This document shows, piece by piece, positions 330 through 49,443 of a DNA stretch of 64,000 nucleotides. The notes under the pieces were generated by a model. That model was not told where the DNA came from, ran no database searches, and saw only the letters and a list, made by a program, of their open reading frames with translations. Made by a program: the position numbers and the translations under genes. Numbering within the stretch: the stretch's first letter is position 1; every line of letters starts with the position of its first letter. Source of the DNA: Amoebophrya sp. A120 (lineage: Eukaryota; Protista; Dinoflagellata). The stretch lies in assembly GCA_905178155.1 (NCBI GenBank), contig CAJINV010000021.1, positions 607,530 to 671,529 on the forward strand, written 5' to 3'.

Positions 330-3300
330 TCAGCTCGCAGAAGTTTCTTCTTCCAATCGCACTTGCAAGTAACGGTCAAACGCTTTCGACTCTGCCACAC
401 TATCCTGTGCAAAAGTATCGCACTCGTATTGCAATCAAAATCATGCATTGCAAAAAATCTTTTTCTTAAAGGTGAATTCGCATATACAAGTTCTTTTATT
501 TTTCATGCTGAGGAAATCTGTAATGCATTTATACGAGTACGATGCTGTTGCAGTGCATACACACTGTCTCGCTGCAACAGCGCCAGGTACCGGCGGCCGC
601 TGTCGCTCCAGGTAGGAATTCGATCGTAAAAGCCTTGGAACTTGATGCGCCAGTCCTCGAGAAGAAGCTGGACACCAGCTCGTGGGTCGTTGTGCAACAG
701 GCTGGACATAAATGAGGATCGATCTTCGCTGGAGGATGACGTTGGACTTGGTTGAAGAAGGTCAGCAGATGTAGTTGCTGTTGCACTACCTCCAGCGCCA
801 TAGTCATGAGTCTGGACCGCGTCAGAATTATTTTTACCCGCTCGTTCAGAGGACACCTGAGGCACAGGCTCGTCACGTCTGAACCAGTTTCCTGAAGACC
901 CCTGCTGAAACGCCGCGAGTACGGCAATGTGGGCCAGGCAGAAACTGAGTCGCGCCAGGTCCTCGAGGGTGCAACTGCGGGGTAGGAGGGATACGAAAAT
1001 AAATTGGCCGGTGAACAGCACGGCAGAGAACGCTGCGAAAACGGCCACAATCCCGAGGGAAACGAAAGTTGAGGCGACCGGGTCGTCCCAGAGTAGGACG
1101 TTGTAGCACTTTTCGCACACATCCAGCATGCCGAGAAAAAATTCCGCCTGTTCCAGCACGACGGCCGTGGTAGGCAGTTTTTTCGACAGCATCAACGCTT
1201 TTTCTCGCTGGCTCCCCAGGATCCAGTGCAAAATTATCGTTCTCGTAGTATTCGCAACCATGCATGACAAATCTCCCTCACAAGGTACATCACCATGACG
1301 AATTCCCGCCTCTGTCATTCTGAGCTAACTTGTATTGCAAAAATTACGTAGCTTCTACTAGTACCAGTACGATAGTACTATCGCATTTCATACCCACCAG
1401 CGGCGTCCGCTCGTGCTCCCAGACCACCCAGCCTCGGGAGGCGGCGGAGAGAGTCGTCGGGACGTCAGAGCACCAGCGCCCGCCTTGTTCTTGTCCTGTC
1501 GCGGCTGACGACGACGAAGAAGAGCCACGGCTGCCACCTGGGCTACCATTTAATATCACCTGCTCGAAGTAAAGAGGGTTTTTCCGTCGATTCTGGCCGA
1601 CGATGTAGACGAGCAGCAGAGCAAAAGCGAGGGGAAACAGCGTCCAGTGCAGTGCGTAGTAGGCGTATCCAAAAAAAAAACTGTGTAAGTGTAACTTTTT
1701 TGCAGGACTAGCATCACAGATTTGTTTTGCATGACAGAGAACCTGTCATGCGTAGCTAGTACGCGAAAACACGTATTAAAAAAACAGCCTCTGATGCATA
1801 TCCGGCATGACAAGTGTAACTGTTTTGCAATAGCTGCAAGACAAAGTTGCACTTACACAGTTTTTTTCTTGCATAAGGCGAGAAAGAAAAGCCCGTTCCG
1901 GTAAATAATTCTGGTCGTCTGCCTGTAGTACAAGAACGCCGGTCCATGTCTGAGTAGATCATTCTCATTGCTGCTAGTAGTAGTAGTTCTAGAGGAACTA
2001 CTCCTGCTGTGGATTTTTGACAACGGCGCCACATGATCAGACGAAGCTCCGAGCAAATAACCGCGCTCGTCTTCCGCCCGCAGCCATTTTACAAAGTCAC
2101 AGAAAACCTCGAGCGGCAAGTGCCAGTGCAAGTATTGTCAGGAAAAATGTCCCCATCCCATAGTCAAGATGGGAAAGCTGCAACACAAACTCGGAAGTTT
2201 TGGGAGTCATGCATGACAAGTTCCCCTCTGAATTGTAGTGCAGTTTCGCAAGGACAGCCGCATCAGAAAGCCAGCTCCTCATCCTATTTTTAGCATCACA
2301 AATTCCAAAACACGATTGGAAATGGCTCTCGTGGGGATGCGCATTACAAGTCTTCCTGTCCTTGCAAATCAGCATCACAACTCTGGGGTGGGGACGTTTT
2401 TACTCAGCATAGCAAGCGTAGCTGCGTCAGCCGGTTCCGGGATTCGATCGCATCCTCAACCAGTATAACCCGCTCAGGTGTTACAATCTCAAGCGTTACA
2501 ATAGAATCTGGAATTTGTGTTGCAAGACGTGCATGATCTACCCTACTCCCACAGGATTGCGCATGACAAGTTCTGGAGTCCCAATCCGCACTACAATCTG
2601 GCGAAATTTGTATTGCAAAAAGTGGAACGCTGTCCGAGTCTGTCATGTTAGTCATGCAAGACAAATTTCAGATTCTATTGTAACGTTTGAGATTGTAACA
2701 CCTGAGCAGGTTATAACCAGAGAAAGACCCTTTTCGTTGCTCGCGCTCCAGTATGAACTGCAAAAGGATCGCACTCGTATAAATGCATTACAAATTTTCT
2801 CAGCATGAGAAATCAAATTTGTAATGCGGATTTACCTAAAGAAAAAGCTTTGTAATGCATGACTGCAATTACTATGAGTACCTACGATACTTTTGCACAG
2901 GATATCCAGGGGTCGACGCTGACTGTGGGGGCGGGTCGCAGGTAGTGGCGGAAAATAGTTGTACACGTCGCGGCTCCTGTATGCAAGAAAAAAACTGTGT
3001 AAGTGTAACTGTGTGTTGCAGAAAATGCAAAACTGTTACACTTGTCATGCTGGACATGCATCAGAGGCAATTTTCGTACGTGTTCTGTTTCTCGTGCTAG
3101 CTACGCATGACAGGTTTTCTGTGTCATGCAGAGCAAACTTGTGATGCAATTCCTCCAAGAAACTTACATTTGACAGTTTTTTTCCTGGATATCCTGCGGT
3201 CTTCGATAAACTAGAGGCTTTGGCTTGTCTCGCTACTATCGACATCAGCGGAAGAATTTCCAGTTTCAGCTTGACCTTTAGCGTAAAGTCTTATGCGTTG

Positions 3301-5593
3301 CAAATATCTCTGGGTCTGGAAACCTGTGACGCTGCGTAGTGCATCATGAGGAGGCCACAAGTGCTGACTCAGTATGACAAGTTTCTGAGCTTCTAGGTGT
3401 CGCCTATTCGCATTCGGCATGACAAACTGCGTTTCTGCATGACAGAAAAGCGGGGCTCTTGGGTAACGTACATGACAGATTTAAGAGTCATGCCAGACAA
3501 GCATGACAAACATGCGTTCTTCCAGACCCAGATGACATTTTTGCAGTTGATAAGTCTCGATCTTGCGCCATTCCCCCGCCTAGAGCTATCAACTGCAAAA
3601 ATGTCTGGGTCTGGAAGGATGTAACCTGTGATGCGCATTTCAGAACACACAAAAATCTCTCATGCATGGGTAGCAAAAGCTGCCCGCTTTCGGTCACCAA
3701 AATGGGGGATTTGTCATGCGGGTTCGGCATTGCGGAAGCTTCTTGAAAACCGTGATGCTAGAGCTTCCATGCCAGACCTTCCGTGTCATGCAGAAACAGC
3801 ATGACTCTTCCAGACCCAGACATTTTTACAATTGATAACAGCACCGCCAACGCGGTAGCTTGCCGGAAAAAAAGTGTACCAGGTCGACGGAAGTGCGGTG
3901 GGTTGGATCCCTTTACACAACCATGACACGGGCGGAATGTTGCCCGTTAAGAGACTGCTTCGAAGATTGTTGGAAGCAGCAGGACCAGACAACAGCGCGC
4001 CAGCCAGTGGTATGCACACCACATAGTCCGGACGTAGTCTGCCAGCAATGTAGCTCGGGCCCCAGAGATACACCACAATGTCGGTGCGAATGTCCGCAAC
4101 TCGCAGGCACGCCCCAGTGTCTACCGGTTCCAACGTGGTACTTCTTCCAGACGTTGTTGTATCAGTAGAGGAAGAACTCTCATGCGGTGGCCCGCCAGGA
4201 TCATAATCCTCGTCTTCCTCCAGCAGCCCTTTCCTGCGCCGCATGTAGCGCAGGGAAACCAGATCTGACTCCTCCGCGTCGGACAGGACTTGGATGCAAT
4301 ACTTCGCGAGTGGAAACTCCTTTCCGGGCTTCACATCCACGTCAATCGCGTCGATTGTCACATCAACCCTGCAGCTGCACTCGGCGTTAAATTTTTCATC
4401 CTGCTGCACAGTTTTCTGAAAATGTTTTGTCGTCGTTCCACCGCTAGGCGAAGTCGAATGGCTCCTCCTCGTTGAGGACGACCCTCTAATATGCTCCGCC
4501 GCGTCATCATTCTCGTCTTCTTCTCCAGCAGCAAGATGAAGAGCCCCCTCCTTTTCATCATCATCCCCAAATATTGACGATGACCCCGGGTCGTGGTTTA
4601 TTTCTACTTCCATACTATCCTCCGCGACGGTGATGGTGTGGAGTCTCCGAAAGGGGGACTTGGACCGGTTCGTCACCCTGTTGCGCTGCCGCAAGACGGA
4701 CGATTCCGAATTATCGAGATCGTCACTTGACGCAGGAATTCTTTCCTGGTTGATCTTCGCAGCATCGTTGGTATTGGTTCCAGTTGTACCAGTTGTACTT
4801 TTGGTAGTAGATGAGCTCAGGAGCTCTTCGTCTTCAACCTCCGCTACGGTGTCGCTCCCTCGACGCATCGCAACCATCCGACGCCGCCGCGGCTCCGATC
4901 TGGCTCGTGTAGAAGTCCCTCCATCGCCTTCTTCAACACCTGAAATAATTATTGGGTTGAAATAAAAAAAAATTGTCGGGATATTTATATCTTTATCTCA
5001 TTCTCGACGTTATAAAGGATAAGAAAGAAGCAAAGCTGGCGCATAGTCTCCTGCTTACAAACAGAGTAGTTATATAAAGTACCAGTCTGACCGCCTTCCA
5101 AATTTTCGTAGAGCTTCGCGCGCAAATTTGCCATGCTTTTCTCGTAGTAAGTGAAGCCCGCCGCGATGCCCTTGTGATACAGCCGCTTCAGCGGGCTCAC
5201 TATCCTGTATGAAAACCTGGTCCCCACGACCGCAGAGTCAAGATGCCGACTTTGCTACAGAAAGCAGCAAGCTTTGGCTTTTGCGCATGACAAGTCTGAG
5301 CTCGTACAACTAGCGTACTTAACTTTTTACTCCTGTTTAGCTAGTGCAACCGCAACCGCATCACAAATCGACTGCCTCTATCCTGGTTCCAGAATGACAA
5401 GTCCCAAAATAGCGTTGGAAAATGCTCCTCATAGGGTTGCGCATAACACAGAGAAATTGAGGCATGTCCTCGCTTTGCATTGCAACTCGAACTCGTCTGG
5501 GGCGGGGAAGTTTCTGCACGGGATACTCGCTTTCTCCTCGTCATCATTGTGCCTCGGGATGTCGTAGCGGTACGAAGGTCCGATGTTGGCTGG
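330..5593 (-). CDS. Multi-exon MCTP-like protein (C2 domain, transmembrane segments, PRT_C-like C-terminus); 5' end not resolved
   Basis: Removing 10 TIR elements (each with one direct-repeat copy) and a GT-AG intron at 4940-5082 gives one continuous frame: ...WYTFFP...DFTLKVKLKLEIL (C2-like end)...LAYYALHWTLFPLAFALLLVYIV (TM)...EKCYNVLLWDDPVASTF...FYDRIPT (PRT_C-like)...ETSAS, stop at 330-332. Family call is by motif recognition only. Confidence 0.75.
401..559. mobile_element. Introner-like TIR element, family A (~160 bp)
   Basis: TATCCTGTGCAAAAGTATCG...CGATGCTGTTGCAGTGCATA; direct repeat CACAC/CACAC; removal gives DSV-AESKAF in frame. Confidence 0.9.
1220..1392. mobile_element. Introner-like TIR element, family A-like, degenerate left end
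   Basis: GATCCAGTGCAAAATTATCG...TCGCATTTCATA; repeat CCCAG/CCCAC; removal gives PLVG-SQREK in frame. Confidence 0.8.
1666..1875. mobile_element. Introner-like TIR element, family B
   Basis: TATCCAAAAAAAAAACTGTGTAAGTG...CACTTACACAGTTTTTTTCTTGCATA; repeat AGGCG/AGGCG; removal gives FFLA-YYAL. Confidence 0.9.
2133..2411. mobile_element. Introner-like TIR element
   Basis: TATTGTCAGGAAAAATGTCCCCATCCCA...TGGGGTGGGGACGTTTTTACTCAGCATA; repeat GCAAG/GCAAG; removal gives LRL-HWHL. Confidence 0.9.
2464..2715. mobile_element. Introner-like TIR element, family E (TIR ~60 bp)
   Basis: TATAACCCGCTCAGGTGTTACAATCTC...GAGATTGTAACACCTGAGCAGGTTATA; repeat ACCAG/ACCAG; in-frame join. Confidence 0.92.
2752..2904. 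mobile_element. Introner-like TIR element, family A, opposite orientation to 401-559
   Basis: TATGAACTGCAAAAGGATCG...CGATACTTTTGCACAGGATA; repeat TCCAG/TCCAG; in-frame join. Confidence 0.92.
2980..3191. mobile_element. Introner-like TIR element, family B, opposite orientation to 1666-1875
   Basis: TATGCAAGAAAAAAACTGTGTAAG...CAGTTTTTTTCCTGGATA; repeat TCCTG/TCCTG; in-frame join. Confidence 0.9.
3292..3552. mobile_element. Introner-like TIR element, TCTGGGTCTGGAA family
   Basis: TATGCGTTGCAAATATCTCTGGGTCTGGAA...TTCCAGACCCAGATGACATTTTTGCAGTTGATA; repeat AGTCT/AGTCT; removal gives QDRD-FTLKV. Confidence 0.9.
3587..3837. mobile_element. Introner-like TIR element, TCTGGGTCTGGAA family
   Basis: TATCAACTGCAAAAATGTCTGGGTCTGGAA...TTCCAGACCCAGACATTTTTACAATTGATA; repeat AGAGC/ACAGC; in-frame join. 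Confidence 0.9.
4940..5082 (-). other. Canonical GT-AG intron in the MCTP-like gene
   Basis: Minus strand ACT G|GTACTT...ATTTCAG|GT GTT GAA joins ORF 4985..5227 to ORF 3786..4877 in frame. Confidence 0.7.
5201..5525. mobile_element. Introner-like TIR element (diverged)
   Basis: TATCCTGTATGAAAACC...GAAGTTTCTGCACGGGATA; repeat CTCAC/CTCGC; internal GCATGACAA; removal gives EEKAS-PLKRL. Confidence 0.75.
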
Positions 5594-5763
5594 CTATGGC
5601 GTTTCAAGCGTTGCGCTCTCAACTGCTATGATGAGTTTGTGATGCTGCAAGAATAGCAAATAAGAACCACTCCCCACGACTGCGTCGTGGGGCAAGCATT
5701 GTATTTGTTCTTCCCGTCGATTGTGAAAGAAAAAAGAACTTCACTGCCGCACCGGAAAACAAG

Positions 5764-6090
5764 GAGTGAGATCTGCTCACAACTTTTTTAAAAATGGCAC
5801 TTTCGGGCGGCCCAAAGGTGAGAATTCTCAGAAAATGAGATCTCAGAGAGCTCTCACTTTTTTCAAAATCTCACTTGGCGGCCCAAAAGTGCGATGGCTC
5901 AGAAAGTGAGAGCTCAGCGAGATCTCACTTTTGTCAAAGTCTCGCTTTTGGGCCCTCTCGGAGAAGTGACTCGGACCGTGAGACTTCTTTAGAAAGTAAG
6001 ATCTCGCTGGGATCTCACTTTTTTCAAAGTGAGACTAACTGAAATCAATCTCACTGAGATCTCATCGAGAGCATCTTACTTCTTTCACTT
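5764..6090. repeat. Degenerate array of AAAGTGAGA / (GAGA)TCTCACTTT motifs in both orientations
   Basis: Repeated GAGATCTCAC, TCTCACTTTT, AAAGTGAGA and GCGGCCCAAA; no ORF. Confidence 0.7.
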
Positions 6091-6373
6091 TTTTTTCCAA
6101 TTTGTTATCTTTCCATCGCCAGACTGATGCGGCGTAGCGGTTCCTCGTCGAGTAGCTGCGTCGGACGCGGCCGAAGGCCCGAAAGCGAAAATCTTCCCCC
6201 AATAAGACCAGCGAAAATTTTCCGCCGAGCTATTCTATCGGGAGGCTCCGAGCCATGAAAAAAAAGCAACTAGAACAACAAGCGCTTCATCGAATTATAG
6301 GTAACATTCATTTTTGTCGTCTGCGCAGGAAAAAAACAGCAGCTGCGCGCAAGAAACGCAAAAAGCGGCGAAG

Positions 6374-7008
6374 CTTCTGAAGAGCTTCTGAAGGTTTTTT
6401 TCATTTTTTGAGCACTGGCTGTCACAAAAGAAGCCTTTTTTAGGCGAGGAAACAGTTTCGCGCGCATCAAAAGCGCCGATTTGTGTAATATCTTCTGGAG
6501 AGTCTTCAGAAGGTTCACCTTCAGAAGAATGACAAATCAAATTCTTCTGAAGGTGTGCGAATTTTAATTTTTGCATTTTTTCAAAAACGAGACAATTTTT
6601 GAAAAACCTTCAGAAGATTTTTAGTCTTCTGAAGGTTTTTGTAGGTGTTCCGATTTTTGTTCATTTTTTGCGTGTAAAAACTCGCAACCTTCTGAAGGTT
6701 TGCAATTTCATCAAACGAAGCAAACCTTCAGAAGAATGCCTACCTTCTGAAGGTTTTTCAAAGTCATTTTTTGGCCTTCTGAAGGTTTTTTTGTCGAAAA
6801 ATCGAAAAAATTCTTCAGAAGGTGAAAAAAAACCTTCAGAAGGCTAGACCTTCTGAAGGTTGTAAACAATGAGCCACAATTTGATTTGCGCGAGCTAATT
6901 CTGCGTTTTTAAAGATGAAAAGTAGCCGACTATTTTTTTTGACCTTCTGAAGCTTGAAAATCAAATTTTGAGCGTCAGAAGGTCTTCAGAAGGTCAAACC
7001 TTCAGAAG
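6374..7008. repeat. Array of about 17 CTTC(A/T)GAAG interrupted palindromes
   Basis: Counted by eye at about 6374, 6385, 6504, 6519, 6544, 6608, 6626, 6689, 6726, 6744, 6776, 6813, 6834, 6850, 6944, 6984, 7000. Confidence 0.85.
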
Positions 7009-8318
7009 CTTTGGGAGGAGCAAATGCATATCTTGCCCCTATAGTATATAGATTAAGCGATAGGGCGGGGCGGGGGACCTTGCGCATCTTGCATCATACA
7101 GATTTGGCGCGGATAGGTTATGAAGCAATTTAGCACGACGTCAAGAAGAACTTGTCATGCGACGAAGCTTGCTCGTTTGAAGCGTGATAGTGATTCTGTG
7201 TGACCATGACAAATCACGCAACTACAGTTGAGAACGAAACGCTTGCGAGTAATCCCATACTGGCGGTGTCGGGCTGCTAGGAGCACGATCTGATCCCCCC
7301 ATTGCGATTGCGATATTAGTATTACCGACGCTTCTCCTGCATTTATTACGTTACTTTCTGACCACTCTGACGAGCCTGATGACGGTCGTACGGCCGCGCG
7401 CCTGTAGTTGCTAAAAATTCGAGCTCGAGTAGCAGGTGTTACCGACTTATGGGTGGAATTATGCACGACGGCAACTCCATCCGTCGGAAACGGAATGAAG
7501 CGCGCCTTCTCGGTTGCGAAAGCGAGTCTCATCATCTTCGGCATTGCTTGTACTTGTCTGCGATGCGTTCCTCTTCTTGTTCTTTCTCTTTCCTCCTTAT
7601 TGATTCTATGCTGCCCAACGACCAAAATTTGTTCTGCGTACAGACACCCAGCAAGTGCGAGGGAAAACAGAAATAACGATACTGCTCAACACCACACCAA
7701 GTACGCGATGCACGACGACATGATCCATCCTACAATCTGCCCCGGCGCTCCTCTCGTGTGGTAACTGAGTGAAGCCTAATTTCGGTTTATTTGACTTCGT
7801 ACGAAACTGGAAACCGAAACTGCTGCTGGAGACAGAGAAATAAAAACAGCACAGAGGACACAGTTGGTGGAAAAAAACTGTCTGCTCTCTAGGCTCCTAC
7901 CTGTGGTCCTCCCACAACGTCGGGCGTGAGTTCCTCTTGTGACAGCGGAGTCACTCAAAAATACAGGAGTAGAGATACAGAATTAGCTGCTTGTACAAGT
8001 TTTATTATTTCATTTTTTCCATTCTTGTTCATCTCGAAATAAAGTGAGAGCCAGTATTTCTTGAACTACTAGCACTACACGAGCAGGCACGTCCTCGCGC
8101 CTTCTCCTCCGGCCGCGGCCACCGTGCGGGAAACGTAAAAGGTGGCAAAGACAACATGACAGCCAGCAAAATATTACACAAAGTTTCGCTTCGAATGCAT
8201 GGTCGCAGCACAAGAAAAAACATATAGTATTGTTTCAAAGTACTGCTCTATGCAGCTCGCTTGTTTCTACTTCTACTTCAAGTTCTCCCCACATTTCCAT
8301 TTGAGCGGCGGCGGGTCG

Positions 8319-11300
8319 CTACTTGTCGCTGGCAGTAGCCGCGAAATCAATCGCGTGCTTCGCATACCAACTCGCCAGCACATCAGCCTCGATCCACTCC
8401 TTCGTACCCCGGTTCTCAAAGAGGTGCAACGTGCTGTCCGCCTCCGTGACTGACATGACGACAAACTTCAGCGGTTCGTTGGGTAGTTCCAGTTCCTCAT
8501 CGGCAACCTCAGCAGAGTGAGACATGGCTGCGCCGGCCACTCCTTCTTTCGCCGAGTCCTGCTCCAGCGAGGACGCGAATTATGCACTGCAAAAGTATCG
8601 CACTCGTATTAATCGTAGTTATGCATTACAAATCTGTTTGTCAAGGTAATTGCAATTCCGCATTACTATATTTAATGCTGGGCTAATTTGTAATGCAATG
8701 AATAAATTGCCAATTTATACTACTACGATCCTTTTGCAGTTCATACGGATGCTGCTGCAGCAAGTCCTCCTCCAGTGCTGCCGGTTCCGGCACTGGGCTG
8801 TATGCATTGCAAATGTGTCTAGGTCTGGAAGCTTGTCATGCGAAGTCTGCAACTGCATCGTAAAAAAAATTGTGTTGCATGGTTACAGAAAGTTGTCCAC
8901 TTTTGAACAAGTTTAGAGGCAGTTTCTAGTAATGAAGGAGAGGCGTGATAAACAGAGCTCGTCCCACGGAATCTGTCATGATAGATGCTGTATACCAGAT
9001 CCCATGTCATGGGTCTGGGTCGCGGAAAACCTGCCTGACAGAAATCATCAAGTTCAAGACCCAGACGTATTTGCTTTTGATATTGATGGGCTGCGTCTGC
9101 GTTCTTGTGCTACTGCTTTTGGCAACCAGTCGCACCGCCGCACGGACGGCGTTTCTCACGTGCTCCACGTCTTCATCTTCGACGGCCAGTATGGCGCGAA
9201 TGTTTAGCCGATCAGCCCACTTTTCGCAGCGCGTCAGCATGTGCATTTCGGTGTTGAGAAGCCGGCGCCGAAACCCCGCCCAGGATGTCCACAAAAACCT
9301 TTCCCGGAAGACATTGCTCTGCATCTCCGCCACGTGTGTCACGTCCACAACATCTGCCAGCGCTATCGAGTTTTTCTCACGCGTTTACATCGATAGCTGT
9401 TACATGTTGAGTTATTTGAATCCGTGCTGCAAGAGTTGTAGCTAAGGATAAAGTGGAAGGCGAAGGGGGAAGTTTGCGTGTCTTGCATTACATAAAATAA
9501 ATTATCCGATGCAACTACAGCTATCTCCATGCTAACAATCAAGCGCGTCGAGACACTGTCATGCGAAGTAGCTTGCTTGTGTGAGGGGTGATGCTGACGG
9601 TAATTCTGCATGTTGACAAAAAACAATGTAACAGCGAGTAGTGATGTAACGTTTGAGAATGAAAATCCCATAAACACTAGCACTGGCATATGACCCGGCC
9701 CGAGATCCTCACGCAGATTCGTGACGGCACTCGTCGTAGCCTGGCGCACCATGCCACCAAGCCGGCCCCTCCAGCCGTGCGCGACGCGGCCGGCGTTCTT
9801 TAGTGCGTATTCTTTTGCGACGTCCCACATGCGTACACTTTCGCCTTCCCCCGTGCACCGACCCCTCTTGAAGGAGAGTGGCGCCGCGGACACAACGTTC
9901 TGACGGACGTCGGCAGTCTTGTTGTAGCCCTTACCCGCCTCGCCCACCTGCGCACGCTCACCACCGGCAAAATCAATCCCCTTTCGTTCCAGGAACAGCG
10001 TTCCCGCCAGTTGCGCGTTGGTGAACAGAATCGCAGAAACGACATGGTAAATGGCTGCCCCGGCAATCGCCCAAGGGCGTGGAAAAGTCAAGTCTTCAAT
10101 TCTGGGTCTCACCAGCTCAAAAGCGCGACTGATAACCGGTCCCGGAAAGAGGAAGGTCGCGTTTCCATGTTCCTCATAAAGATCGAATGATCTCTCGAAG
10201 TCCCACCCCGGATCGGAGTGCGCAGAAGGCGGAAGGCGGGAGTGCGCTTCCAGGGTTGAAGGCGCCAGCGAGTAGTACTTCTCGTCCAGGTATGGTGGGT
10301 CAAACGTTGTCTCTGGGTTTCGCACACCAATTTGATCCCACCACCACCACGCGCGACCATGGGTGGCATAATTGCTCACTGGACTGCGCTTGATTACTGC
10401 CAAATATTTCCGTGCCAGACTCCGGGCCATCACTTCGTCCACGACGGTGAGGAACGGCTTCCCCGTTGCAATCCCGATCCCATCCGGCATGGAGGTTGAC
10501 GCTTCCTGCTCGTAGCCCTCGGACGCGACATTGTACATCGGCCGAAGAGATGAGGACGAGGGCCGAAGCAGATCCCTGTCTCCACGCGCCGGCACTAAAT
10601 GACTCCTCGCAGTACTATTGTCTTCATCTCCACGGACCACATCCGCTGGGAAAACAGTTGCCACCCAGCTGAAATCAGATCTGTCGGAGCGATAGTACTT
10701 CGGAATGACGCACAGCACAGAGCTCGGCTGTGCCTTGTTTTCTATCGTTCGTCCAGAAGTTGTTGAATTGTTTGCTCTACTACTAGCGCCTCCACTTCCT
10801 GCTGCTGCTGCCTCTAGCGCCGCCTGCACGTCAGCACTGGAGAAAATCCCGGCCCCTGGGACGTCGTGGAGGCTCTGCTTTTGAAACTCACAGTGGTCGA
10901 CTTCCCCCTGCAGGACCTGCAAGCTGATTTTCCCCGACCTGTTAAATTCGCGCGCGGCGAGCTCTGCGTTTGCGATCCGAAGTTGCTCTGCAATAGGGTT
11001 TATCAACTGCAAATGTCGTGTCTGGGTCTGGAGAAACAGAAATGCAGAAAGTTTGTCAACATGCTCGTCTTGGGAATTTTACGGCTGGGCCGCGTGGCCC
11101 CTGCTGTTTGATAAACCTTAAAACGGCACTTACTAGCGGCACTAGTTACCGCCACCTACTCGACAAACTCTAGGTAGGCGGAACACGTTTGGCAAACTCT
11201 CGGCGGAATGCAGGAGTTTGTCATGTAGGTTTTCCACCCCAACCACACAAATGGTGTGGAATGGTGCACGCAAAAGTATTACAGGCTTGGCGGAAGAGGC

Positions 11301-13429: not shown

Positions 13430-13541
13430 CCAACTTACCAACCTTACAACTTACCAACCTTACAACTTACCAACCTTACAACTTACCAACCTTACATCAA
13501 CTTACCAACCTTACAACTCAGAAACCTTACAACTTACCAAC
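13430..13541. repeat. Minisatellite (CAACCTTACAACTTAC)n
   Basis: Tandem 16-nt units visible directly. Confidence 0.9.
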
Positions 13542-13569
13542 CCTGAGCCAAAAAGGAACTGTGGAAAAA

Positions 13570-15342: not shown

Positions 15343-15353
15343 GCACAAGAACT

Positions 15354-35894: not shown

Positions 35895-36154
35895 CTCGCC
35901 TCAGGTGGAGGCGAGCAAAACGCTCGGAAATTACCGTCTTCGGGAGAGAAGAGACAAACGGTAGAATCAAGTCCGCCCAGGTGGGCAGCGGAGACAAGAC
36001 GAACGCAGACCAGACTACATTGTGTGTTTCACAGTGAAGTTGAGAATTACACTCATCTCTCAAAGAGTAAACAAAAGCAAAAAGGCCCAACGTGGGCTCC
36101 CACAAGCGGCGGGCACGGTAAGAGTGTTTCAACCGTGTTTACATAAAAGAATGC

Positions 36155-36175: not shown

Positions 36176-36266
36176 GCATAAAAAGCTCATACTCTTGTAA
36201 TTTTTTTTAAGCGCAGGCAAAACGCTTGAAACCCATCATGAACACAAAAGTTGCAGCACTCGGGCC

Positions 36267-39200: not shown

Positions 39201-42200
39201 GTTTCCCCCACCAGCAGCACCACTACCACTATCCCCGCCAAAGTGGTTACTGGAGCCATTCTTGCCAGATGACCCGCCCTTTCCACCGGCGCCCGCGCCG
39301 AAATTGTTTTTACTTTCAGCGTTGTAGTAGTTCGCCGGGACACGGCTTGTCAGTCCGTTCACGTGCACGATCGGGGAAATGCCTTCTGCAAATCTCCGGC
39401 AGCACAAGTGAGTACACTCCTCGCAGCCCACTGGAATGATTTTTCAAATTCAAAATGGAATAATAAAATTTAGCATATTTTTTCAGTGCATAACGCTGAT
39501 CTTCATGTTTCACAAGTACACGCTTACTATCGACGCACTCCTCTTGAAGAGGACTAAAATTCGTACCTAAGAAGTAGCTAGGTACCTACGTACTAGAGTA
39601 ATGCGAAGAACAGCCGAAGTCTACATCTAACGAAAGTACATCTTCAACCATAGCGAAAGAAGCTGCGTTCTCTTTACCGTAGCAGATTGCTTCTGTCGAG
39701 TTGGTCTCGTCCGAGTATTTTTTGTGCAGGGCATCAATTTCCAGGACCGTTTGCTCCGGTTCATTCCGGCTGCAATCATTATCCCCGATGCGGATCCAGA
39801 TGGGAACCCGGTTCGTGTCAATCGACAGGGGGCGGAACTTATCAAATGTAAAAATGTCTGGGTCTGGAAGAGTCATGCTGTTTTTGCATGACACAGAAGG
39901 TCTGGCATGGAAGCTCTAGCATCACAGGTTTCGAGAACCTTCCGCAATGCCGAATCCGCATGACAAGTCCCCTATTTTGCTAACAAAAAGTGGGAGCTTT
40001 TGCTACGTATGCATGAGAGACTTTTCTGTGTTCTGAAATACGCATTACAAGTTGCATTCTTCCAGACCCAGACATTTTTACATTTGATAGAACTTCGTGC
40101 AGTGGTGGTAACGCCAGTCGTATCAAGTGGCAATATAATGTCTGGGTCACTGGAAGAATGCATGTTTGTCATGCTTGTCTGGCATGACTCTTGAATTTGT
40201 CATGCAAGTTACCCAAGAGCAGCTCCATTTTTCTGCCATGCAGAAACGCAGTTTGTCATGCAGAATACTAGGCAACACCTAGAAGCTCAGAAACTTGTCA
40301 TGCTGGGGCAGCACTTGTGGCCTCATCATGATACGCCACCCAGCATCACAAGTTTCCAGACCCAGACATTTTTGCATTTGATAAGTCGTCTCGCGCCGGG
40401 GCTTGCTTGAACTCTTCCAGCAGGAAGGTGATGAAGTCGATGGCTCCCTTCCTCGTGAGGTAATTGTTGTGGCAGTTATGCAATACAAATTTCCTGTACG
40501 TGTACAAAATGCATCACAAACTTCACCAATTTGGGCTTTTTTACCTCTTGTCATGCTAAACTAGAATCGAAGTCCAGTTTTGTCATGCAGAGACCGCATT
40601 TGTACTTGTGCGGGAAATTATTTACTCTGGATAGCAGTGCACCTCGTGAAACTTCATCTCTTGGTCGGGAAACATCTCCTTCCACTGCTTAATGTACTTA
40701 ATCAACGGATCCAGAGTCGTCAACAAGTTCCCGTCGATGCGCCAGACGGAGATCTGGTAGATTTTTTTTTTTTCCTTTTCTAGTATACTATTTGCTCGTG
40801 TTGCATGTACATGTAGTCAACATCTTCTTCAACAGGCCAACAACTTCTAAACTTCTCACGTGCACCAGCTGCACGGATCACCTCTCATCTCTGCACGGAT
40901 CACCTCTATTTGTTTTTCAAGATTATTCAAATACCTGGATCTTTTTTCGCAGAAAGAAATCGATGAGTTTCTCGAACGACTCGTCGTTAAGCTTGATTTA
41001 TGCACTGCAAAAGTATCGCACTAGTAGCGATCGCAATGCAAATGCAGCATGACAAATGGACAATGACAAATGAATGAATTTTTCATGCCGATTTCGCTTG
41101 GAAAGGCAGTTTTCTCCTGCATGACTGCAATTCGTACACGAGTGCGGCACTTTTGCAATGCGTAAGGTTTCCCGCATGTGCAGCTGCCCGCGACACTGCG
41201 AGTACTGTTCTTCCTTGTCGATGAAGTCCTTCGAAAAGGAACCCGCCACACCGCCGGCGTCCACGGGGTACATGTACTCTTCCAGCGATTCGACGAACTG
41301 ATAGAATTCATTTACATTTTCACGACATGTCGGGTTATGTATAATTAATACTAGGATTTTTGATGAATCATGGGGTTGTCAAGCGATGATCTGCAGCATC
41401 TACTTCAAGTACAAGTCACGAGTTCTACTTCATCGGTACACAAATTATTTGCTTTGCAGCTGCTCACTATCAAATGTAAAAATGTCTGGGTCTGGAAGAA
41501 TTCATGTTTGTCGTGCTTGTCTGGCATGACTCTTAAATCTGTCATGCACGTCACCCAAGAGCTCCGTTTTTCTGTGATGCAGAGGCGCAGTTTGTCATGC
41601 AGAATAGGCAACACCTAGGAGCTCAGAAACTTGTCATGCTGAGCCAGCATTTTTAGCCTCATCATGAGACGCCACCCAGCATCACAAGTTTCCAGGCCCA
41701 GACATTTTTACATTTGATACTCACGTCGTGGTGACAACTTGTATAGTACGGCGTCCACGTTGTCTCCAATGTACTTGAAGTCCGGGTGTCCCTCCGGCGG
41801 GGCACTTATGAAAGCCTCAGGTTGGAAATCCTCAAAGTGGAAATAATTTGTGATGCAAAAAAACGACTCCAGTTGAAGCGTCATTTGTAGTCGGCGCATG
41901 ACAAATCTCCCGGGCACTTAAAGCATGTCTGTCATGCAGGTTAAGGCAAAGGGGTGCCCTTCTCTCATGCTAAGCAGCACTCCAATTCTTCACCCCTAGC
42001 AGGACAATAATCGGCCTCCATTGCGTCCTCTGCAATACAGTCTTTTTTGCGTCGCATTCCATGCATCACAAATTATTTCCACTTTGAGGATTTCCGTTCT
42101 GAGGCCTTCATAGCACTCTTGCCGTTCTTGCCCTTGCCCTTCTGCCGGTAGCTCTGTTGGTACACGGGGCAGAAGAAGCAAATGATTTCGGGTCTTTTCA

Positions 42201-45200
42201 GCTGATGTATGCATTGCAAAAGTGTCTGGGTCTGGAAGATTGCAACTTGTCATGCTAAATCCGAATCATGCAAAAAGCTGTGTTGCATGAGTGCCAAAAG
42301 CAGCTGTCCCCTTTCGCCCAAGTTGAGAGGGACTTTCTCATGCAGGAAAGGCATGATAGAAACCTCAGAGAATCTGTCATGCTGGGTCTCGCATTCCAGA
42401 CCTCATGGATCATGGAAAACCTGCATCACAGATCTTCCTTTCTTCCAGACCCAGACTTTTTTACAGTTGATATGATGCTGCAGGTTCTCCACGATCTTGA
42501 TCGAGTACGACCGCGCCACAGGGTTTCCCTGCATCGCCACATATACCGTGCGCAACCGTTACAATCTCAACAAGCGTTACAACTACAGCAATGGAAATTT
42601 GTAATGCAAGTAGTGCAGTTAATCTAGTCTACTGGTACTGTCACAGGATTTTTGCGCATGACAAGCTCTGGAGCTCCAAACGAACCCCATGCATGAGACT
42701 TCTCTGGCGAAAATCTCTAGCGCAAAGCCCTGTATGTTCCTCATGCAATCCATGCAAGACAAAATCCAGACGCTTCTGCTGTAACGCTTGAGATTGTGAA
42801 AGCACCTGAGCGGGTCATACCACAGCAAATCGGTTTTTCGCATCGACTCGCAACAGCTCATTCTCCGCCTTAGAATCTGGACGCTCTGTGGTTGTGGGAC
42901 AAGAAGACGCCATCAGTTTTTTATCATGCTCTCTTCCCGGTTCATTTGAGGAAAAGAAATGTCAATGATGTATTTTGTCACATCAAGATTATCAAACATC
43001 AGTGCTAGTACTCCTGCCTCAAACGACCACAGCTAAGGATCAATTCAACATCACACATCATTTCAAAAAAATTCCTCACCCCATCGCCTCGCACACTTCA
43101 TGTTGACAACGCCATTCGCCCTGTTCGCCGGCGGATTCTGGTTGATCGGGTGTTTCATGGATTCCAACACTGATGGGTTAGGGTTGTTCTCAGAGGCCCC
43201 CTCGGCGCCCCAGGGACCTCGATTTCCTTTTCCCCCTCCCTTGCGATTGTAGTTCCAATTGTTCCAATTGTTATCCCAGTCGTTGTAATTCGAATACGAA
43301 TTGTTCCAGTTGTTGTCGTTGTAAGAACCACCTTGATAATTATTGTAGGTGCTCTGGTACCCACCCCCGGGCTGGTGCACGTGCTGACCGCCCCACATCA
43401 TATTCATACCACTCATGTTATGGGAGTGTCAGGATCGAAATCGACAAAATCGAATCTGTAATGCATAAAAATGCTACGCAAAAAGCGACTCTATTGCAGA
43501 GGATGCAAGGAAGGCGGATTGTAGTCCTGGTAAGGGTTAAGTGTTGGGCTGCTGACTAGCATGACAGAAGGCAGCTCTTTTGCCCTAAACCGCATAACAG
43601 ATTCGCTTCCAGGACGAGGAGGATTTGTCATGCGCCGACTACAAACTGTGGGTCTAACTGGCATCGATTTTGTGCATCACACGTTTTTCGATTTTGTCCA
43701 TTTCGATTCTGACACTTCCATACATGTCCATTCCCATTGCTTGGTTCATCATCATCACCATCCCCATCGGGTTCATCATCATTTGCGGTTGTACCAAGGA
43801 AAATTTTCACTCTCGCGGCCATCCAGAGCAGTTGGTCAAGATGTTGAATTGCGCACGTGACAGACTACGAATTGTAGTACGAATACGAGTACATTATAAT
43901 AAATGCAAAATTCAAATCGAGCACCTAAAGCTCCTTCAACAGCACACGCAAGGAGCTACTCTGCGGGCCCCGATTGGTGTGCTTTAACGTGTGATACCAT
44001 ATTGGCCATCTGGAGTTGCTGGTTTTGGAAAACCAACTGCTGCATGTGCATCTGGAACTGCTGTGGTAGTTTTTGAATGTAGTTTTAGTTTTGCGTCATC
44101 ATGTACTAGGTTGGTACGGTAGATTACTAGTCGAAGTCGGTTGAAGTGGATATCTAAATCTATCCAAACAACTCAACGCGCGCAGCTGCACTCGATCGCG
44201 ATCGAGATCGAAAACAAGGACAGGAGCGCAGTTAATTATTTCCATTCAGTACAAAAAGATGAAAAACAAATAGATATAGAATACAATGCGCAAACACTAA
44301 AGCATACCTGTTGCCCGTCAGTGGACATCATGGTAGAGTCAGTCGCGTTCGTGCTTGCACCTGCCTGCGCAGCGACTGCTCCGACCTGCTCGTTGCTGGC
44401 AGCATTCTCCTTGTTTTCCTTCTGATCGTCGTCGATCTTGGGGCGCTTGGCAGCGGGGATCATGTTGTTGTTGACCTCGTCCTGCTCCACCGGTTCATGA
44501 CCCAGATCGTCGCTCTTGGGGCGCTTGTTGGCAGCGGTGCTGGTAATTTTCTGATCCTCTTCAACAGCTTCCATGTCGTTCATCTTGGCGGTTTTCTTGT
44601 TGCTGTTTATTCCCAAGTCGGCACTATTTTCAGTACTTTCTTTTACGACAGCGACGTTAGCACTCTCCTCCTCCGTTCTTAATACCGTCTCCTGCCCAGA
44701 ACAGGATGAAGCAGTAGCGGGAACAAGTGGACCTACTTTCTTTTCCGCTTCGGCCTTGCACGACTTTTCGACTCCTTCACGGTCAACATCTTCTTTCTTC
44801 GGTTGTAGGTGTTGCAGTTCTTCGACGGCTGGAGCTCCCCCTCCCGCAGCAAAAGCATTCGCCTGCTCGCCTTCAACTTCGCTAAAGGAACGGCCGTCCC
44901 GAAAGGGGTTGTTCGTTCCTTCAATCATTTTCGAGGCAGACGAGGGGGCGGTAGAATATGGAAGCGTCAGGTTTGAAATCGTCAAAGTTGAAATAATCTG
45001 TAATGCATAAAATGCATGGCCCGAGGTACGTGTGTTGCAGAGCAGGCAAGTGAGGCCGACTGTAAGCCTGTTTGTGGTTGCAGCTCGAGCTGCTAAAGTA
45101 GCATGAGAAAATCACTCGTCTTTGCCTAAACAGCATGACAAACTGGATTTAGGGACCACCCAGATTCGTCATGCGCCACTTGGAAACTGGGTTCCAACTG

Positions 45201-48200
45201 GCATCCATTTTATGCATGACAAATTATTTCAACTTTGTCGATTTCAACTCTGACACATCCATATAGAAGGAACAGGCTCCGCGAGAAGGTCGTGGGCTTG
45301 TTCATCAGAAGATTTATTCTTTTCGGAGTTTTCTTCGTCTCCAACCTGAGCCTGTTCATCCGCCTCTGTGGTAGGTTGTGCAGCCGGGGGCAGCTGCTCT
45401 TGTTCGACGTCCAGCTTCTTTGTATCATGTTGACCTTCTTGAACCTCTAGCACTCGTCGTCCTCCCGGCACAACTTCTTCGATCTTCTTGCTTGCCTTTT
45501 CATCAGTACTAGAGGCCGCGCACTTAGTATCTTCATCGACGGCGGATGATCCCTCTACTACTTCGAGTTTACCTTTACTTGTCAGTGCCACTTCTTCGGA
45601 TTCAGTCCTAGCAGGGATATTCTCTTTTTGTTTTACTACGCTTTCCGATTGTTCCACCGCCTGTTGTTCTACCTGTGGCTTATTCGTAACCGCGACGCCC
45701 GGCGCAGTTGCTTTCGCTACCGGAGGACGAGCGCCGAGGCTGTTGGAGCTTGCCGCGCTGGCGTCAATCGTCGCACAAGAAGTCGCAGCCGCTTTATTCG
45801 CCAAAACTCTACTCGCCGCCACTTCCGCTTGCTCCCTACTCACGGCCGCGCCCACGGGAGCGAAGCGCGCTGCCGTGGCGGCCATGGCCTGTTGCTGCTG
45901 AATCTGCAGCGGAGTCGGCATTGTTCCAGGCGCTGGCTGAGAGTTGGCCGGCGGTCCGAACCGGGATCGCTTTTTCTTCGGGCCGGCGACAACCGGCTCC
46001 TCTTGTGCTTCTTGTTCTTGGCCAGCACCGGAGGTTGTTGTGCTAGGAGGATCTTGCTTCTTGGAGCCGGCTTCAGTGGTCTTCTCCTCTTGTTGTTCTG
46101 TACCAAGAACGGGACCAGCTTGCAGGACGCCCCCGACCCACTTCGTGGTCGTCGTAGCACCACTGGTGTCCTTCGTTTCATCCTCCACGCCAGCGAGAAC
46201 TGCGCCGGCGGCGCCAGAAGCGGTAGAAGCACTAGGGTCAGCAACAACATCAGAATCGTGTTCCTCCTTTTCAGTATCATCCTGGCGCCGCTTGTTAGTT
46301 GTTTCGGTCACCAGCAACGTCGTGGAGGGAGCAGCTTTGATGTCCACCTGCTCAGCAGCTTGTTTCAACTCGACCACCTTCATCGACACAGCAGCTTCCT
46401 CCTTCTCTACAACTGCATTAGAGGCGGTTCGGGTTGTCATTTCCAACATTTTCTTCACTTCTTCAGGCTCCGCTTTGTCCTCTGCGTTGTGTCCTCCTTC
46501 CAGAGCCTTGACGCCAGCACCCATGATCCGCACAGCACCTGAAAATGTTGAAAGGTACGTCGAAACAAAAAAAGTCAGAAATGTAGTAGGATGAAAAAGA
46601 AAAATGAAAGTCATGATCTGAACCCCACGAGAAGCTCGAGCTCAAAAATCGACGAAAGCACTTTTTTGATTTACCTTTCTCTGTTTCGTACTCGTCGCCA
46701 TCCTCGCCAAGAACTGCAGCCTCGCTCAGCTGCACCGGGCAAGAACTAAGGCCTGAAGTGGCGGCGTCACACAACTCCGTGGTCTTCGAGTCAATCTTCT
46801 GATGATCCAATACAGGAGCTGCCTCGTTGTTCATTTCGAGCACATCTTCGTCTTTCTCGACAATAGAAGGAGCATCAATAACTACTTTCGCAACGCTCTC
46901 GTCTACCTGATCTTTTCGTAATATTTCGCCTTCGCCAGCACCGACAGCATTTACTTCCTTGTTCTCCACCGCCAGGTAGTCGTCGCCTGAAGTGCCGGCT
47001 ACTTCCAATGCATCCTCGAGCTCCATCGAGCTGTTGCTCTTTTCATCTTCCTCGTGTCCGCTTAATTCAGGCGCGGCGAGGTGGTCATCGTTCTCGTCGG
47101 ACCGTAGATTCTCCTCCTCCTCATCATCTCCCCCGCCTTGGCCGCGAAAGGGATTCGATCCTGACGGGGAAGCCTGTTTCGGCAGAGTCATATTATTACC
47201 AGTCGTTTGCTCATCTGGGAGCGCGACGTTTGCGGTGCTGGACGTCGCGGCGCCATTGGTGTTCTCCTGTTGCTGTTGGTGCACTTCCTCCTGCTGCTCT
47301 TCCTCTTGCGGGAGTTCATTTCCGTCAGATTCGTCGTGTTGTTTTCCAGTACTCGCAGGGGATGAAGCAGCCTCATGTTCTTGGCCGTCGACGTCCGGCT
47401 CCTCCAAGACTTGATCTTCGTTTTCAGCGGGTGCGTCGCTCTCGCTACCCTCAGACGAGTCAGACTTCACGCTAGCGGCGTCGGACTCTTGGGAATCAGC
47501 TTGTTGCTGTTCCTGTTCAGACACTACTTCGGCGTTCGAGCTTGTCTCCTGCCGGTCGTTGTCCAAGTTACTTTCATCTTGTTCAGAGACAGAGCCCGAG
47601 GAAGAGGATGAAGCATCTTCCTCCGCAGGACGAACTTCCTCATCTTCATCCGACTTTGCCATCGGATGATCCTCAGCAGGAATAGGAGCAACGTTTTCGC
47701 TTTGTTGATCATCAGCGGCGCCGTCAGCGGGAACTACAGATGCTGGCGGCGCGAAGAAATCGTAATCAGACATCTCTTGCTGGGGTTCTACTTCAACTTC
47801 TTTTCCTTCGGTCGTATTGGCAAGATGAACTACGGGACCTGCAGCTGCAGCTTCTTCCTGGTCTAGCTGTTCAACAGCAGCAGGCGCTTGTGCACGAGGC
47901 GAGTTCTCTTTTTCCTCGACTTCCATCTGCATCTCATCTTTCTCCCCTAATAATTCTCCCCCGTCCGGCACGGAAGCGGCCGCTGCGCCCTCCTGTATCA
48001 AACGAAAAAATCCCCCCGCCCCATATCAAAACGAAATTTCTGATGCTGGATGTGGATAGACAAACCGCCTTTGTCTTGCAGCAGATGACTGCAGGCACAT
48101 GCCGAGCCTGAGGCGCGAGGGTTTGACGTAGGTGCCTAGCATGACAAACGTCTATGCTGTAGGCCCAGCAGCATCACAAACCGCCTACATAGTGCGGCGG

Positions 48201-48898
48201 ACTCTCTAGAGTTGCTCTCTTGCAAGACAAACAGAATCTGTGGTCAAAAAATCTGCATCACAAATTTTCAGGCGCGTGCGTTTTCAATATGGGGAGGGGG
48301 GATTTTTCCTTTCGATATCCTGATACTTCTTCGCAGTAGCCACCTTCAACAACTGCTGACTACTTTTACGCGACGACGTCGAGTGGTCAGCACCAATAGG
48401 ATGATGCTCAGCGTGTAGTAGTTGATGTTTCGGAGTAGGACCACTGGCAGCAGTAGTATCGTCTTTCAGCAGAACCACCTCTGTAGTTGTCGCCGCCGGT
48501 GGGGTGAAATTCGCAGCACCCAAAAATTTCGCAGCAGCCAAATTCGCAGCAGCAACGGGGTCTGTCGGAGTGAACAAGTCTTCAGATTTATTCTGCGCGA
48601 ACGAGTCAGAGTCCGGCTTACTATCGTCCTGTTCCTGTTGTCCACCAACGCCCGGCATGCTCCAGAGGTCTCCGTCGACAGCAACGCGACTGGCACAGTC
48701 CACTGCCGGCGAGCCCCAGGCCATCACCGGAGATGGTTTCTTCTTCTCATCCTGAGCGGCTTTCAACGTCGCGGCGATGTTGTCCGAACCAATCAGGACA
48801 TCGGCGCTCACGCCGGTAGCCTCGGCCGCTTTCTTGGATTCTGTTTTGTTTTCGTTCGATCGTGCGGACGACGTCGTGCCGGGAAGAACGTGATACAA
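36267..48898 (-). CDS. Large multi-exon protein: acidic/disordered N-terminal part, Met/Gln/Asn-rich segment, LRR-like globular domain; may continue upstream past the copia element
   Basis: In-frame joins after element removal, e.g. ...FHEVHC-HNNYLTRKGAIDF...ARDD-WRYHHCTKF-RPLSIDTNRVPIWIRIGDN; 14 TIR elements plus GT-AG introns; terminal exons tentative. Confidence 0.6.
36934..37116. mobile_element. Introner-like TIR element, family A-like, decayed direct repeat
   Basis: TATCCATTGCAAAAGTAT...ATACTTATGCAATGCATA; flanks CGAGA/CAAAA. Confidence 0.75.
38252..38555. mobile_element. Introner-like TIR element, direct repeat no longer recognisable
   Basis: TATGCCATGAAAAAACATGCGATATG...CATAGCGTTTTTCTTCCCATGGGATA; removing element plus 5 nt restores the frame. 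Confidence 0.65.
38624..38930. mobile_element. Introner-like TIR element, family F
   Basis: TATGGAAGTGTCAGGATCGAAATTGACAAAG...CTTTGTCGATTTCAATCCTCACACCCCCATA; repeat TGCTC/TGCTC. Confidence 0.9.
39840..40089. mobile_element. Introner-like TIR element, reverse-orientation relative of 3587-3837
   Basis: TATCAAATGTAAAAATGTCTGGGTCTGGAA...TTCCAGACCCAGACATTTTTACATTTGATA; repeat GAACT/GAACT. Confidence 0.93.
40121..40383. mobile_element. Introner-like TIR element, reverse-orientation relative of 3292-3552
   Basis: TATCAAGTGGCAATATAATGTCTGGGTC...GACCCAGACATTTTTGCATTTGATA; repeat AGTCG/AGTCG. Confidence 0.9.
40477..40633. mobile_element. Introner-like TIR element
   Basis: TATGCAATACAAATTTCC...GGAAATTATTTACTCTGGATA; repeat GCAGT/GCAGT; removal gives EVHC-HNNY. 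Confidence 0.88.
40999..41164. mobile_element. Introner-like TIR element, family A
   Basis: TATGCACTGCAAAAGTATCGCAC...GTGCGGCACTTTTGCAATGCGTA; repeat TGATT/AGGTT; removal gives MRE-IKLNDES. Confidence 0.85.
41468..41719. mobile_element. TIR element nested at the donor of a predicted canonical intron (41351-41724)
   Basis: TATCAAATGTAAAAATGTCTGGG...CCCAGACATTTTTACATTTGATA; repeat CTCAC/CTCAC (GTGAG in gene sense). Confidence 0.88.
41807..42112. mobile_element. Introner-like TIR element, family F-related
   Basis: TATGAAAGCCTCAGGTTGGAAATCCTCAAAGTGGAAATAATTTG...CTGAGGCCTTCATA; repeat GCACT/GCACT. Confidence 0.92.
42208..42472. mobile_element. Introner-like TIR element, TCTGGGTCTGGAA family
   Basis: TATGCATTGCAAAAGTGTCTGGGTCTGGAAG...CTTCCAGACCCAGACTTTTTTACAGTTGATA; repeat TGATG/TGATG. 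Confidence 0.92.
42542..42819. mobile_element. Introner-like TIR element, family E
   Basis: Similar to 2464-2715 (GTTACAATCTCAA...TTGAGATTGT...CACCTGAGCGGGTCATA); repeat CCACA/CCACA. Confidence 0.88.
43419..43722. mobile_element. Introner-like TIR element, family F
   Basis: TATGGGAGTGTCAGGATCGAAAT...ATTTCGATTCTGACACTTCCATA; repeat CATGT/CATGT. Confidence 0.92.
44957..45263. mobile_element. Introner-like TIR element, family F
   Basis: TATGGAAGCGTCAGGTTTGAAATCG...CGATTTCAACTCTGACACATCCATA; repeat TAGAA/TAGAA; removal gives PVPS-TAPSS. Confidence 0.92.
47996..48317. mobile_element. Introner-like TIR element
   Basis: TATCAAACGAAAAAATCCCCCCGCCCCATAT...ATATGGGGAGGGGGGATTTTTCCTTTCGATA; repeat TCCTG/TCCTG; removal gives KKYQ-EGAAA. 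Confidence 0.92.
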
Positions 48899-49387: not shown

Positions 49388-49443
49388 CTACGCTACGCCT
49401 TGAGACTCAAACTGGCTCTTCTAGTCAGATAAGTACTCACAAA

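Follow-up and report, generated by a model that had tools for sequence, protein, structure and literature searches.

Analysis of a 64,000 nt stretch of the Amoebophrya sp. A120 genome (contig CAJINV010000021.1, positions 607,530 to 671,529; hereafter the window) and of related metagenome contigs identified a short internal word, GCA(T/A)(G/C/T)ACA(A/G), that recurs in same-strand pairs spaced 31-33 bp apart inside small elements with TAT...ATA ends. These elements match the published A120 introners in their inverted ends, 5-bp duplication and removal together with one duplication copy, and are likely non-autonomous mini-transposons acting as introns. Judged from the sequence, the paired word is probably a subterminal double-stranded DNA binding site of one trans-acting transposase that would move all families. 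The 31-33-bp pairing, unstated in the original prediction of a shared internal motif, is the strongest part of this code, which bears on the spread of the tens of thousands of non-canonical introns of Amoebophrya A120 and on their removal from RNA.

Elements in the window were delimited by their TAT...ATA ends, inverted repeats and flanking duplications, which yielded 38 elements totalling 9,587 nt. They run from 401 to 59841, so that the previously proposed range of 2133 to 48317 holds but is too narrow. Scanning metagenome contigs with the 20-nt terminal inverted repeat (TIR) pattern of family 0 returned at least 167 loci (about 463 kb of unique sequence), all of them on contigs with the prefix JACKZZ01, and these added at least 330 elements compared to none in a shuffled control. 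The TIR pattern had no match in viral contigs and one in prokaryote genomes, and a pattern built on the motif pair gave 65 viral matches; as none of these 66 loci was element-like by BLAST, they were taken as chance. The combined set of 368 elements (38 from the window and 330 from the related contigs) falls into 37 families, 13 of which are multi-copy. Since the sample leans to family 0 (178 of 368 elements), results were weighted by family and repeated without family 0. Among 171 strong-TIR pairs, collected with no filter on duplication, 77% were bordered by a perfect 5-bp target-site duplication (TSD); other lengths from 2 to 10 were perfect in at most 6%, and a 6-bp TSD in none of the 171. 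The end logo reads TAT[CG]...AAAA with the A-run at nt 11-15, TAT also being a search criterion, and the TIRs of about 30 bp are family-specific.

On both strands of the window the exact word GCAT[GCT]ACAA was counted 40 times as GCATGACAA, 16 times as GCATCACAA and 11 times as GCATTACAA. Inside the 38 elements lay 64 of these 67 matches (6.68/kb) and outside them 3 in 54,413 nt (0.055/kb), an approximately 120-fold enrichment; the lack of enrichment over background that the original prediction named as contrary evidence was therefore not observed. The further claim that it recurs inside elements with unlike TIRs was likewise confirmed: the word was found exactly at 14 of the 15 positions originally cited, the last being off by one (48139 for 48138), and these positions belong to five families (0, 3, 5, 6 and 12) whose sampled TIRs differ. 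Overall, 29 of the 37 families carry the exact word in their interior. A weight matrix obtained by family-weighted, orientation-competitive expectation maximization (site score of at least 9) has the core GCA(T/A)(G/C/T)ACA(A/G)(A/G), often with a T directly before it. The proposed comparison of element interiors with other sequence, run with this matrix on the window, gave 18.4 sites/kb in elements, 0.53/kb outside and 1.25/kb in first-order Markov-resampled elements, a 15-fold excess over the latter; the matrix, unlike the exact-word counts, was trained on elements. Four contig-supported canonical introns (840 nt) contained 2 matrix sites.

Same-strand distances between sites peaked at 31-33 bp, with a family-weighted value of 21.6 compared to 3.3 +/- 1.3 in 300 shuffles (maximum 8.2), and the peak persisted when exact words alone were used. 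Pairs with this spacing occur in 291 of 368 elements and 17 of 37 families, including 12 of the 13 multi-copy families, and comprise 867 of 1,922 sites. Because there were no spacing peaks at 10, 21 or 42 bp, general helical phasing was rejected and the pair is a fixed bipartite site. Length shifts of at least 2 nt affected 51 of 547 pair copies compared to 69 of 416 other site gaps (p=0.0008); counted per base, indels were not less frequent inside pairs (0.48 per 100 nt) than inside other gaps (0.53 per 100 nt). Spacing from the element ends, a check already suggested for this motif, showed modest peaks, with first sites mostly 37-41 or 46-52 nt from an end.

Conservation was determined in 16 collinear groups of at least 5 copies (256 of 368 elements; the other 112 were left out). 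Core bases of the motif mismatched the consensus at a frequency of 0.059 compared to 0.175 for other interior bases, and the value was lower in 16 of 16 groups. Constraint was strongest along the lineages that propagated: motif bases changed at 0.24 times the rate of other interior bases on internal branches and at 0.46 times that rate on terminal ones (Fisher p=1.6e-6). Moreover, pairs were present in all 46 copies with a near-identical relative, but in only 8 of 30 without one, a trend that holds outside family 0.

Transcript evidence for removal of the elements covers positions 36500-48500 of the window; elsewhere intron calls rest on restoration of open reading frames (ORFs). In this region contigs of runs X1 and X4, whose RNA status is presumed, skip nine elements as the element length plus 5 nt. 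In the same minus-strand gene these contigs also lack four canonical introns, which is why we argue that they represent spliced RNA. Of 30 bins, raw-read runs X8 and X9 covered 3 and 7, which lay on repeat copies and yielded no joints. Four joints with mismatched duplications (36934, 37710, 38252 and 40999; window 36928-41166) fit one register only, in which the transcript is cut 1 nt before TAT and 4 nt after ATA with no dinucleotide preference; the element removed at 40999 ends in GTA, not ATA. No GT-AG borders occur in this sole register fitting the four informative joints. Since the base inferred to begin the intron showed no excess of G (74 of 212 compared to a background of 0.32, p=0.38), selection for GT donors was rejected. 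Elsewhere, once elements and one duplication are excised, ORFs extend over 890, 885 and 1044 codons. Element length plus 5 is not limited to multiples of three (76, 58, 78). Excision likewise lets the Pfam profile of a Cu/Zn superoxide dismutase (SOD) continue across element 16225. For 40090-44307 the contig implies 1158 exonic nt, a length that no combination of canonical introns reproduced, so that the elements at 41468, 41807, 42208 and 42542 are putative introns.

To compare recognition on DNA and on RNA, gene strands were assigned with a codon model, which gave a call for 212 of the 368 elements; 161 of 177 calls agreed within loci. In these 212 elements sites were sense to the transcript in 541 and antisense in 552 cases, and pairs were sense-only in 61 elements, antisense-only in 62, on both strands in 45 and lacking in 44. 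Insertions of either orientation occur within families. In family 3, where nearly every site is on one strand, six sense and five antisense insertions were found, and ORF extents back both classes. The motif/interior ratio was 0.33 in 145 exon-called and 0.34 in 22 non-coding-like copies, so that the suggested comparison of motif retention between exonic and other contexts revealed no difference. The old contig-skipped copies at 37710 and 38252 have no pair, and within the SOD ORF no site of the elements at 15866 and 16615 reaches a score of 9. Strand balance, the two-way insertion of family 3, the equal ratios in exonic and non-coding-like copies, the pairs in copies with near-identical relatives, the pairless old copies and the variable RNA pairing described below together favor recognition of this predicted site on double-stranded DNA during spread over an RNA splicing mark. 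Of the original idea that one trans-acting protein recognizes all families, as a transposase or as a factor marking the element for excision, the single shared word is thus supported and a DNA-binding mobilizer favored, but the RNA excision mark is disfavored, and the protein itself is putative.

A word common to most families, its fixed spacing and purifying selection imply one mobilizing system. One DNA helical turn comprises 10.5 bp, and two DNA-binding domains of one multimeric complex might hold the two sites three helical turns apart on one DNA face. Copies with intact pairs would then be those that propagate, and after insertion the word would decay while the copy would still be spliced. 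Splicing would instead read the paired ends, with cuts in the transcript in the register given above. Two signals may in this way be set apart, the internal word likely serving spreading and the paired ends likely serving splicing. By end and duplication type, hAT5-like or Ginger/IS3EU-like enzymes are candidates, and the 41-bp pair provides a defined bait for DNA pull-downs and a signature for autonomous partners.

Several observations weigh against a transposase as the reader of the word. A tblastn search with the Copia pol protein of the window found no match in the 167 loci and no transposase or autonomous partner was found, and according to Farhat et al. (PMC7789003) a transposase was not found in A120 either. 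The interior of the elements contains sites throughout, with no overall inward or outward bias at 30-55 nt, and the sites in the 9 copies of family 7 form no pairs. On terminal branches and between nearest neighbors the motif remains roughly twice as conserved (ratios 0.41-0.50), which fits unsampled active lineages and equally some host selection after insertion; with a few hundred copies sampled, terminal branches include unsampled active ancestors and the two causes look alike. The ratio was no higher in more diverged copies or in copies with mismatched TSDs (0.36 vs 0.33), TIR self-identity as an independent clock was not significantly related to site density (rho 0.08 and 0.12), and the oldest class keeps 1.66 sites per 100 nt, far above background. 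Furthermore, the strand calls are model-based with an error of about 10%, and two calls in the window contradict the known strand. Finally, the patterns would be no different if a DNA-binding factor of the host read the word.

Such a host protein, either a transcription or chromatin factor or a co-factor of transposition, could bind the word on DNA, with pair-bearing elements escaping silencing or being bent for synapsis. Strand independence, fixed spacing and internal-branch constraint all fit this explanation, as does the report of no transposase in A120. We nevertheless consider it unlikely: elsewhere in the window, intergenic DNA included, the word hardly occurs (3 exact matches in the 54.4 kb outside elements), so that it does not resemble a general host regulatory site.

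The word might instead mark the element for excision, a factor on the pre-mRNA, or co-transcriptionally on DNA, recruiting non-canonical splicing machinery. Removal without GT-AG borders, the residual conservation on terminal branches and the failure to detect U1 small nuclear RNA in two strains of the genus (PMC7789003) are in line with this, and 190 of the 212 exon-called elements have sites on both strands, so that most offer a sense copy either way. However, 8 of the 212 have antisense-only sites and 3 none at all, the antisense-only or missing pairs in 62 and 44 elements and the exon insertion of family 3 both ways speak against such a mark, and old contig-skipped copies are pairless. Exon-called copies showed no extra conservation, and the word is missing from canonical introns, with 2 matrix sites in 840 nt. 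An excision mark is therefore also improbable in our assessment.

A role of the word only as RNA structure, with pairing between copies of opposite orientation helping to fold the element and bring its ends together, is highly improbable. In 8 of 16 group consensus folds motif-motif pairing made up about half or more of the core pairing probability on both strands, and the minus strand of 2128-2416 folds far better than shuffles (z -5.9). In contrast, this pairing was at most 0.05 in groups 4, 8 and 9, family 3 has its sites on one strand, the dominant spacing joins same-strand copies that are unable to pair, and pairing needs no fixed sequence across families.

Equally hard to sustain is the view that all families arose from an ancestral 31-32-bp tandem repeat or shared module, of which the word would be a remnant without function. 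Shared ends and TSDs imply common ancestry, and identity of the spacers to the neighboring unit is slightly raised (0.289 vs 0.252), weak support for a tandem repeat. With motifs masked, 4 of 101 cross-family pairs of consensus interiors aligned at z>4 (median z 0.5), with faint patches, compared to 11 of 19 within-family pairs. However, the core changes three times slower than its neighbors within families and four times slower on internal branches, and spacers within pairs carry little information common to families. Decay of the motif along with neighboring bases in one ancestral sequence, which the original prediction named as contrary evidence, was thus not observed (4 of 101 pairs aligned; 0.059 vs 0.175). 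Its description of the families as unrelated nevertheless goes too far: TAT ends, the A-run at nt 11-15 and the 5-bp duplication are common to all and a few faint interior patches are shared, and these features point to one lineage rather than to unrelated origins. A chance or compositional artefact is practically dismissed by the approximately 120-fold enrichment, the 15-fold excess over Markov-resampled elements and a spacing beyond all 300 shuffles.

The common terminus was originally read as a variant of the internal word. TATGCATTGCAAA does resemble the word, but was found exactly at only 61 of 736 element ends, and ends of the form TATGCA.TGCA were confined to 10 of 37 families; in families 3-8 no end scores as a site. 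The terminal TATGCATTGCAAA belongs to a segment of the TIR that is polymorphic, in which it is one variant, and does not represent a general terminal copy of the word.

Returning to the DNA-binding transposase, a far-reaching extension would be a bipartite 41-bp code, made of two GCATGACA-type words separated by three helical turns, that is read by a single protein and unites hundreds of TIR-diverse introner families. The same element-derived machinery, or a domesticated copy, would also license U1-independent, orientation-blind RNA removal at a fixed 1-nt/4-nt offset. We regard this as speculative and doubtful; if true, a transposon recognition code would have been turned into an intron-definition code.

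The elements themselves have already been published, and comparisons refer to the available parts of the cited papers. The A120 introners of Farhat et al. 2021 (PMC7789003) are repeated non-canonical introns of many families, with inverted repeats of TAT followed about 7 nt later by an A-run, 3-5-nt direct repeats and no internal transposase. Our elements agree in the TAT and A-run inverted repeats, the 5-bp border duplication, non-GT-AG removal and repeated families. That genome paper describes terminal inverted and direct repeat motifs only, with no family-specific motifs, and argues against transposase mobilization in A120, whereas here an internal word and its 31-33-bp pairs were found; GCATG had no match in its supplement text, figures aside. 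In 41 of the 58 A120 rows of Gozashti et al. 2025 (PMC12130899), most families are TIR DNA elements of 105-350 bp with superfamily unknown, and family 38 is an 808-bp element labelled Ginger with a 5-bp TSD and TA/TA termini. This later survey treats A120 families as diverse in origin or of unknown transposon type, and its 41 rows, compared by description only, name no shared internal motif. Among the papers listed in a literature search on Amoebophrya, introners and the word itself, and in the paper and supplement text covered, neither the internal word nor its pairing is described.

The principle of subterminal transposase sites is known from hAT and Mutator-like elements, so that the surprise is moderate. 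Maize Ds1 has nothing but its TIRs and subterminal hexamers in common with Ac (PMC3260210), BED domains of Hermes need exactly phased subterminal repeats (PMC10368747), and Muta1 repeats raise binding and excision (PMC5499845). Like hAT elements (Ac/Ds1, Hermes), the introners combine unlike interiors with shared ends and short internal words, a likeness in layout and not in sequence; binding of the words by the transposase and their phasing are hAT features. Ac/Ds has an 8-bp TSD, an 11-bp TIR and 4-6-bp words, compared to a 5-bp TSD, TIRs of about 30 bp, a paired 9-bp word and copies that are precise introns here. The 5-bp TSD differs from that of typical hAT elements (8 bp) and is found in hAT5 (PMC12730594); TSD and ends fit either hAT5 or the Ginger-labelled A120 family 38. 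IS3EU/GingerRoot elements (PMC10045372, PMC12730594) share TA..TA termini with the introners, fungal IS3EU having TAYGG..CCRTA and TIRs >30 bp, but their TSD is usually 6 bp and the available parts of these papers describe no subterminal word. Euglenid nonconventional introns (PMC11282704) resemble the elements in TIR-paired ends, TSD-like repeats, non-canonical junctions, a MITE-like origin (miniature inverted-repeat transposable element) and a removal mechanism that is unknown, as here, but have another end consensus, and the part available mentions no internal motif code.

Near the left end of the window, family 1 introners lie at 401-559 (perfect 5-bp TSD; excision opens a long minus-strand ORF), 1220-1392 (left end decayed) and 2752-2904 (pair 2819/2850, minus strand). 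They are interspersed with family 2 introners at 1666-1875 (pairs 1789/1820 on the minus and 1805/1836 on the plus strand) and, in opposite orientation, at 2980-3191 (3011/3042, minus), a family 3 introner at 2133-2411 with plus-strand pairs 2180/2211, 2260/2293 and 2341/2372 in a minus-strand host gene, and a family 4 introner at 2464-2715 (2608/2640, minus). Family 0 introners follow at 3292-3552 (triple 3437/3470/3501, plus) and 3587-3837 (3626/3657, minus), then a family 3 copy at 5201-5525 with four plus-strand sites and no pair at threshold, and a decayed family 7 copy at 7040-7324 in apparently non-coding context. Introners of family 1 at 8581-8745 and family 0 at 8801-9082 (right end and TSD irregular) precede a singleton element at 9364-9672 in the 885-codon minus-strand ORF formed after excision, and a long family-0-like element of 508 nt at 11001-11508 with a perfect TSD. 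The loci contain four longer TAT...ATA elements of 500-1104 nt; those of 508-1104 nt with a perfect TSD, at 505-1608 of locus L027, 632-1465 of L035, 3862-4492 of L070 and 11001-11508 of the window, are possibly nested or enlarged copies.

The Cu/Zn SOD gene (window 15345-17034, minus strand) is interrupted by four or more elements and apparently by a further intron that lacks a clear TIR. In and beside it lie a family 1 copy at 15182-15342 (pair 15254/15285, minus), a family 1 introner at 15436-15604, a singleton at 15866-16100 in the coding region with intact TIR and TSD (two sites of about 8), a family 0 introner at 16225-16522 that splits the Sod_Cu profile at position 48 (16435/16466, plus) and an old element at 16615-16853. 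An old family-0-like element with one site is located at 19682-20003.

Among the elements skipped by contigs are a family 1 introner at 36934-37116 (183+5 nt; pair 37028/37059, minus), an old TAT...ATA element at 37710-37944 (235+5 nt; one site), which is outside the 38 counted, and an old element at 38252-38555 (304+5 nt; two overlapping sites), which fixes the cut register. Next come introners of family 6 at 38624-38930 (307+5; pairs including 38746/38778, minus), family 0 at 39840-40089 (250+5; 39886/39919 and 40011/40042, plus) and 40121-40383 (263+5; 40166/40197, minus), family 12 at 40477-40633 (157+5; 40548/40580, minus), family 1 at 40999-41164 (166+5) and family 6 at 44957-45263 (307+5; 44998/45030, minus, and 45101/45133, plus). 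Between the last two lie a family 0 copy at 41468-41719 (triple 41508/41539/41572, minus), from its sequence likely nested beside a canonical-intron donor, introners of family 6 at 41807-42112 (41929/41962, minus; 42032/42063, plus) and family 0 at 42208-42472 (42247/42278, minus; 42391/42423, plus), a family-4-like element with a shortened left TIR at 42542-42819, and a family 6 introner at 43419-43722 (43559/43592, plus), beside whose TSD a contig piece ends at 43413. In 41299-41724 element 41468 seemingly lies just behind the donor, its duplication reading as a GT donor on the minus strand. For 43723-44307 the contigs imply only 126 exonic nt, unexplained by combinations of canonical introns; an intron with a GT start and a non-AG end is possible. 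The remaining introners belong to family 5 at 47996-48317 (48038/48071, minus; 48139/48171 and 48222/48255, plus), family 4 at 57363-57603 (57414/57446, plus), family 0 at 58432-58697 (58575/58608, plus) and family 1 at 59674-59841 (59751/59782, minus).

Besides the introners, the window contains a Copia-type long terminal repeat (LTR) retrotransposon at 49010-54898 with two LTRs and a 5-bp flanking duplication. It comprises a first ORF of 394 codons and an RVT_2 ORF of 1273 codons with one stop codon between them, and includes one motif-like match, likely by chance. An uninterrupted, introner-free ORF of 1983 codons with RVT_1 at 29952-35900 (minus strand) is likely a non-LTR retrotransposon. 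Intergenic short palindromic or tandem arrays at 5760-6070, 6360-7010, 12880-13050 and 13430-13545 consist of GAGATCTC-like, TTCAGAAG/TTCTGAAG-like, GCAGCT-like and 14-nt tandem units and are unrelated to the word.

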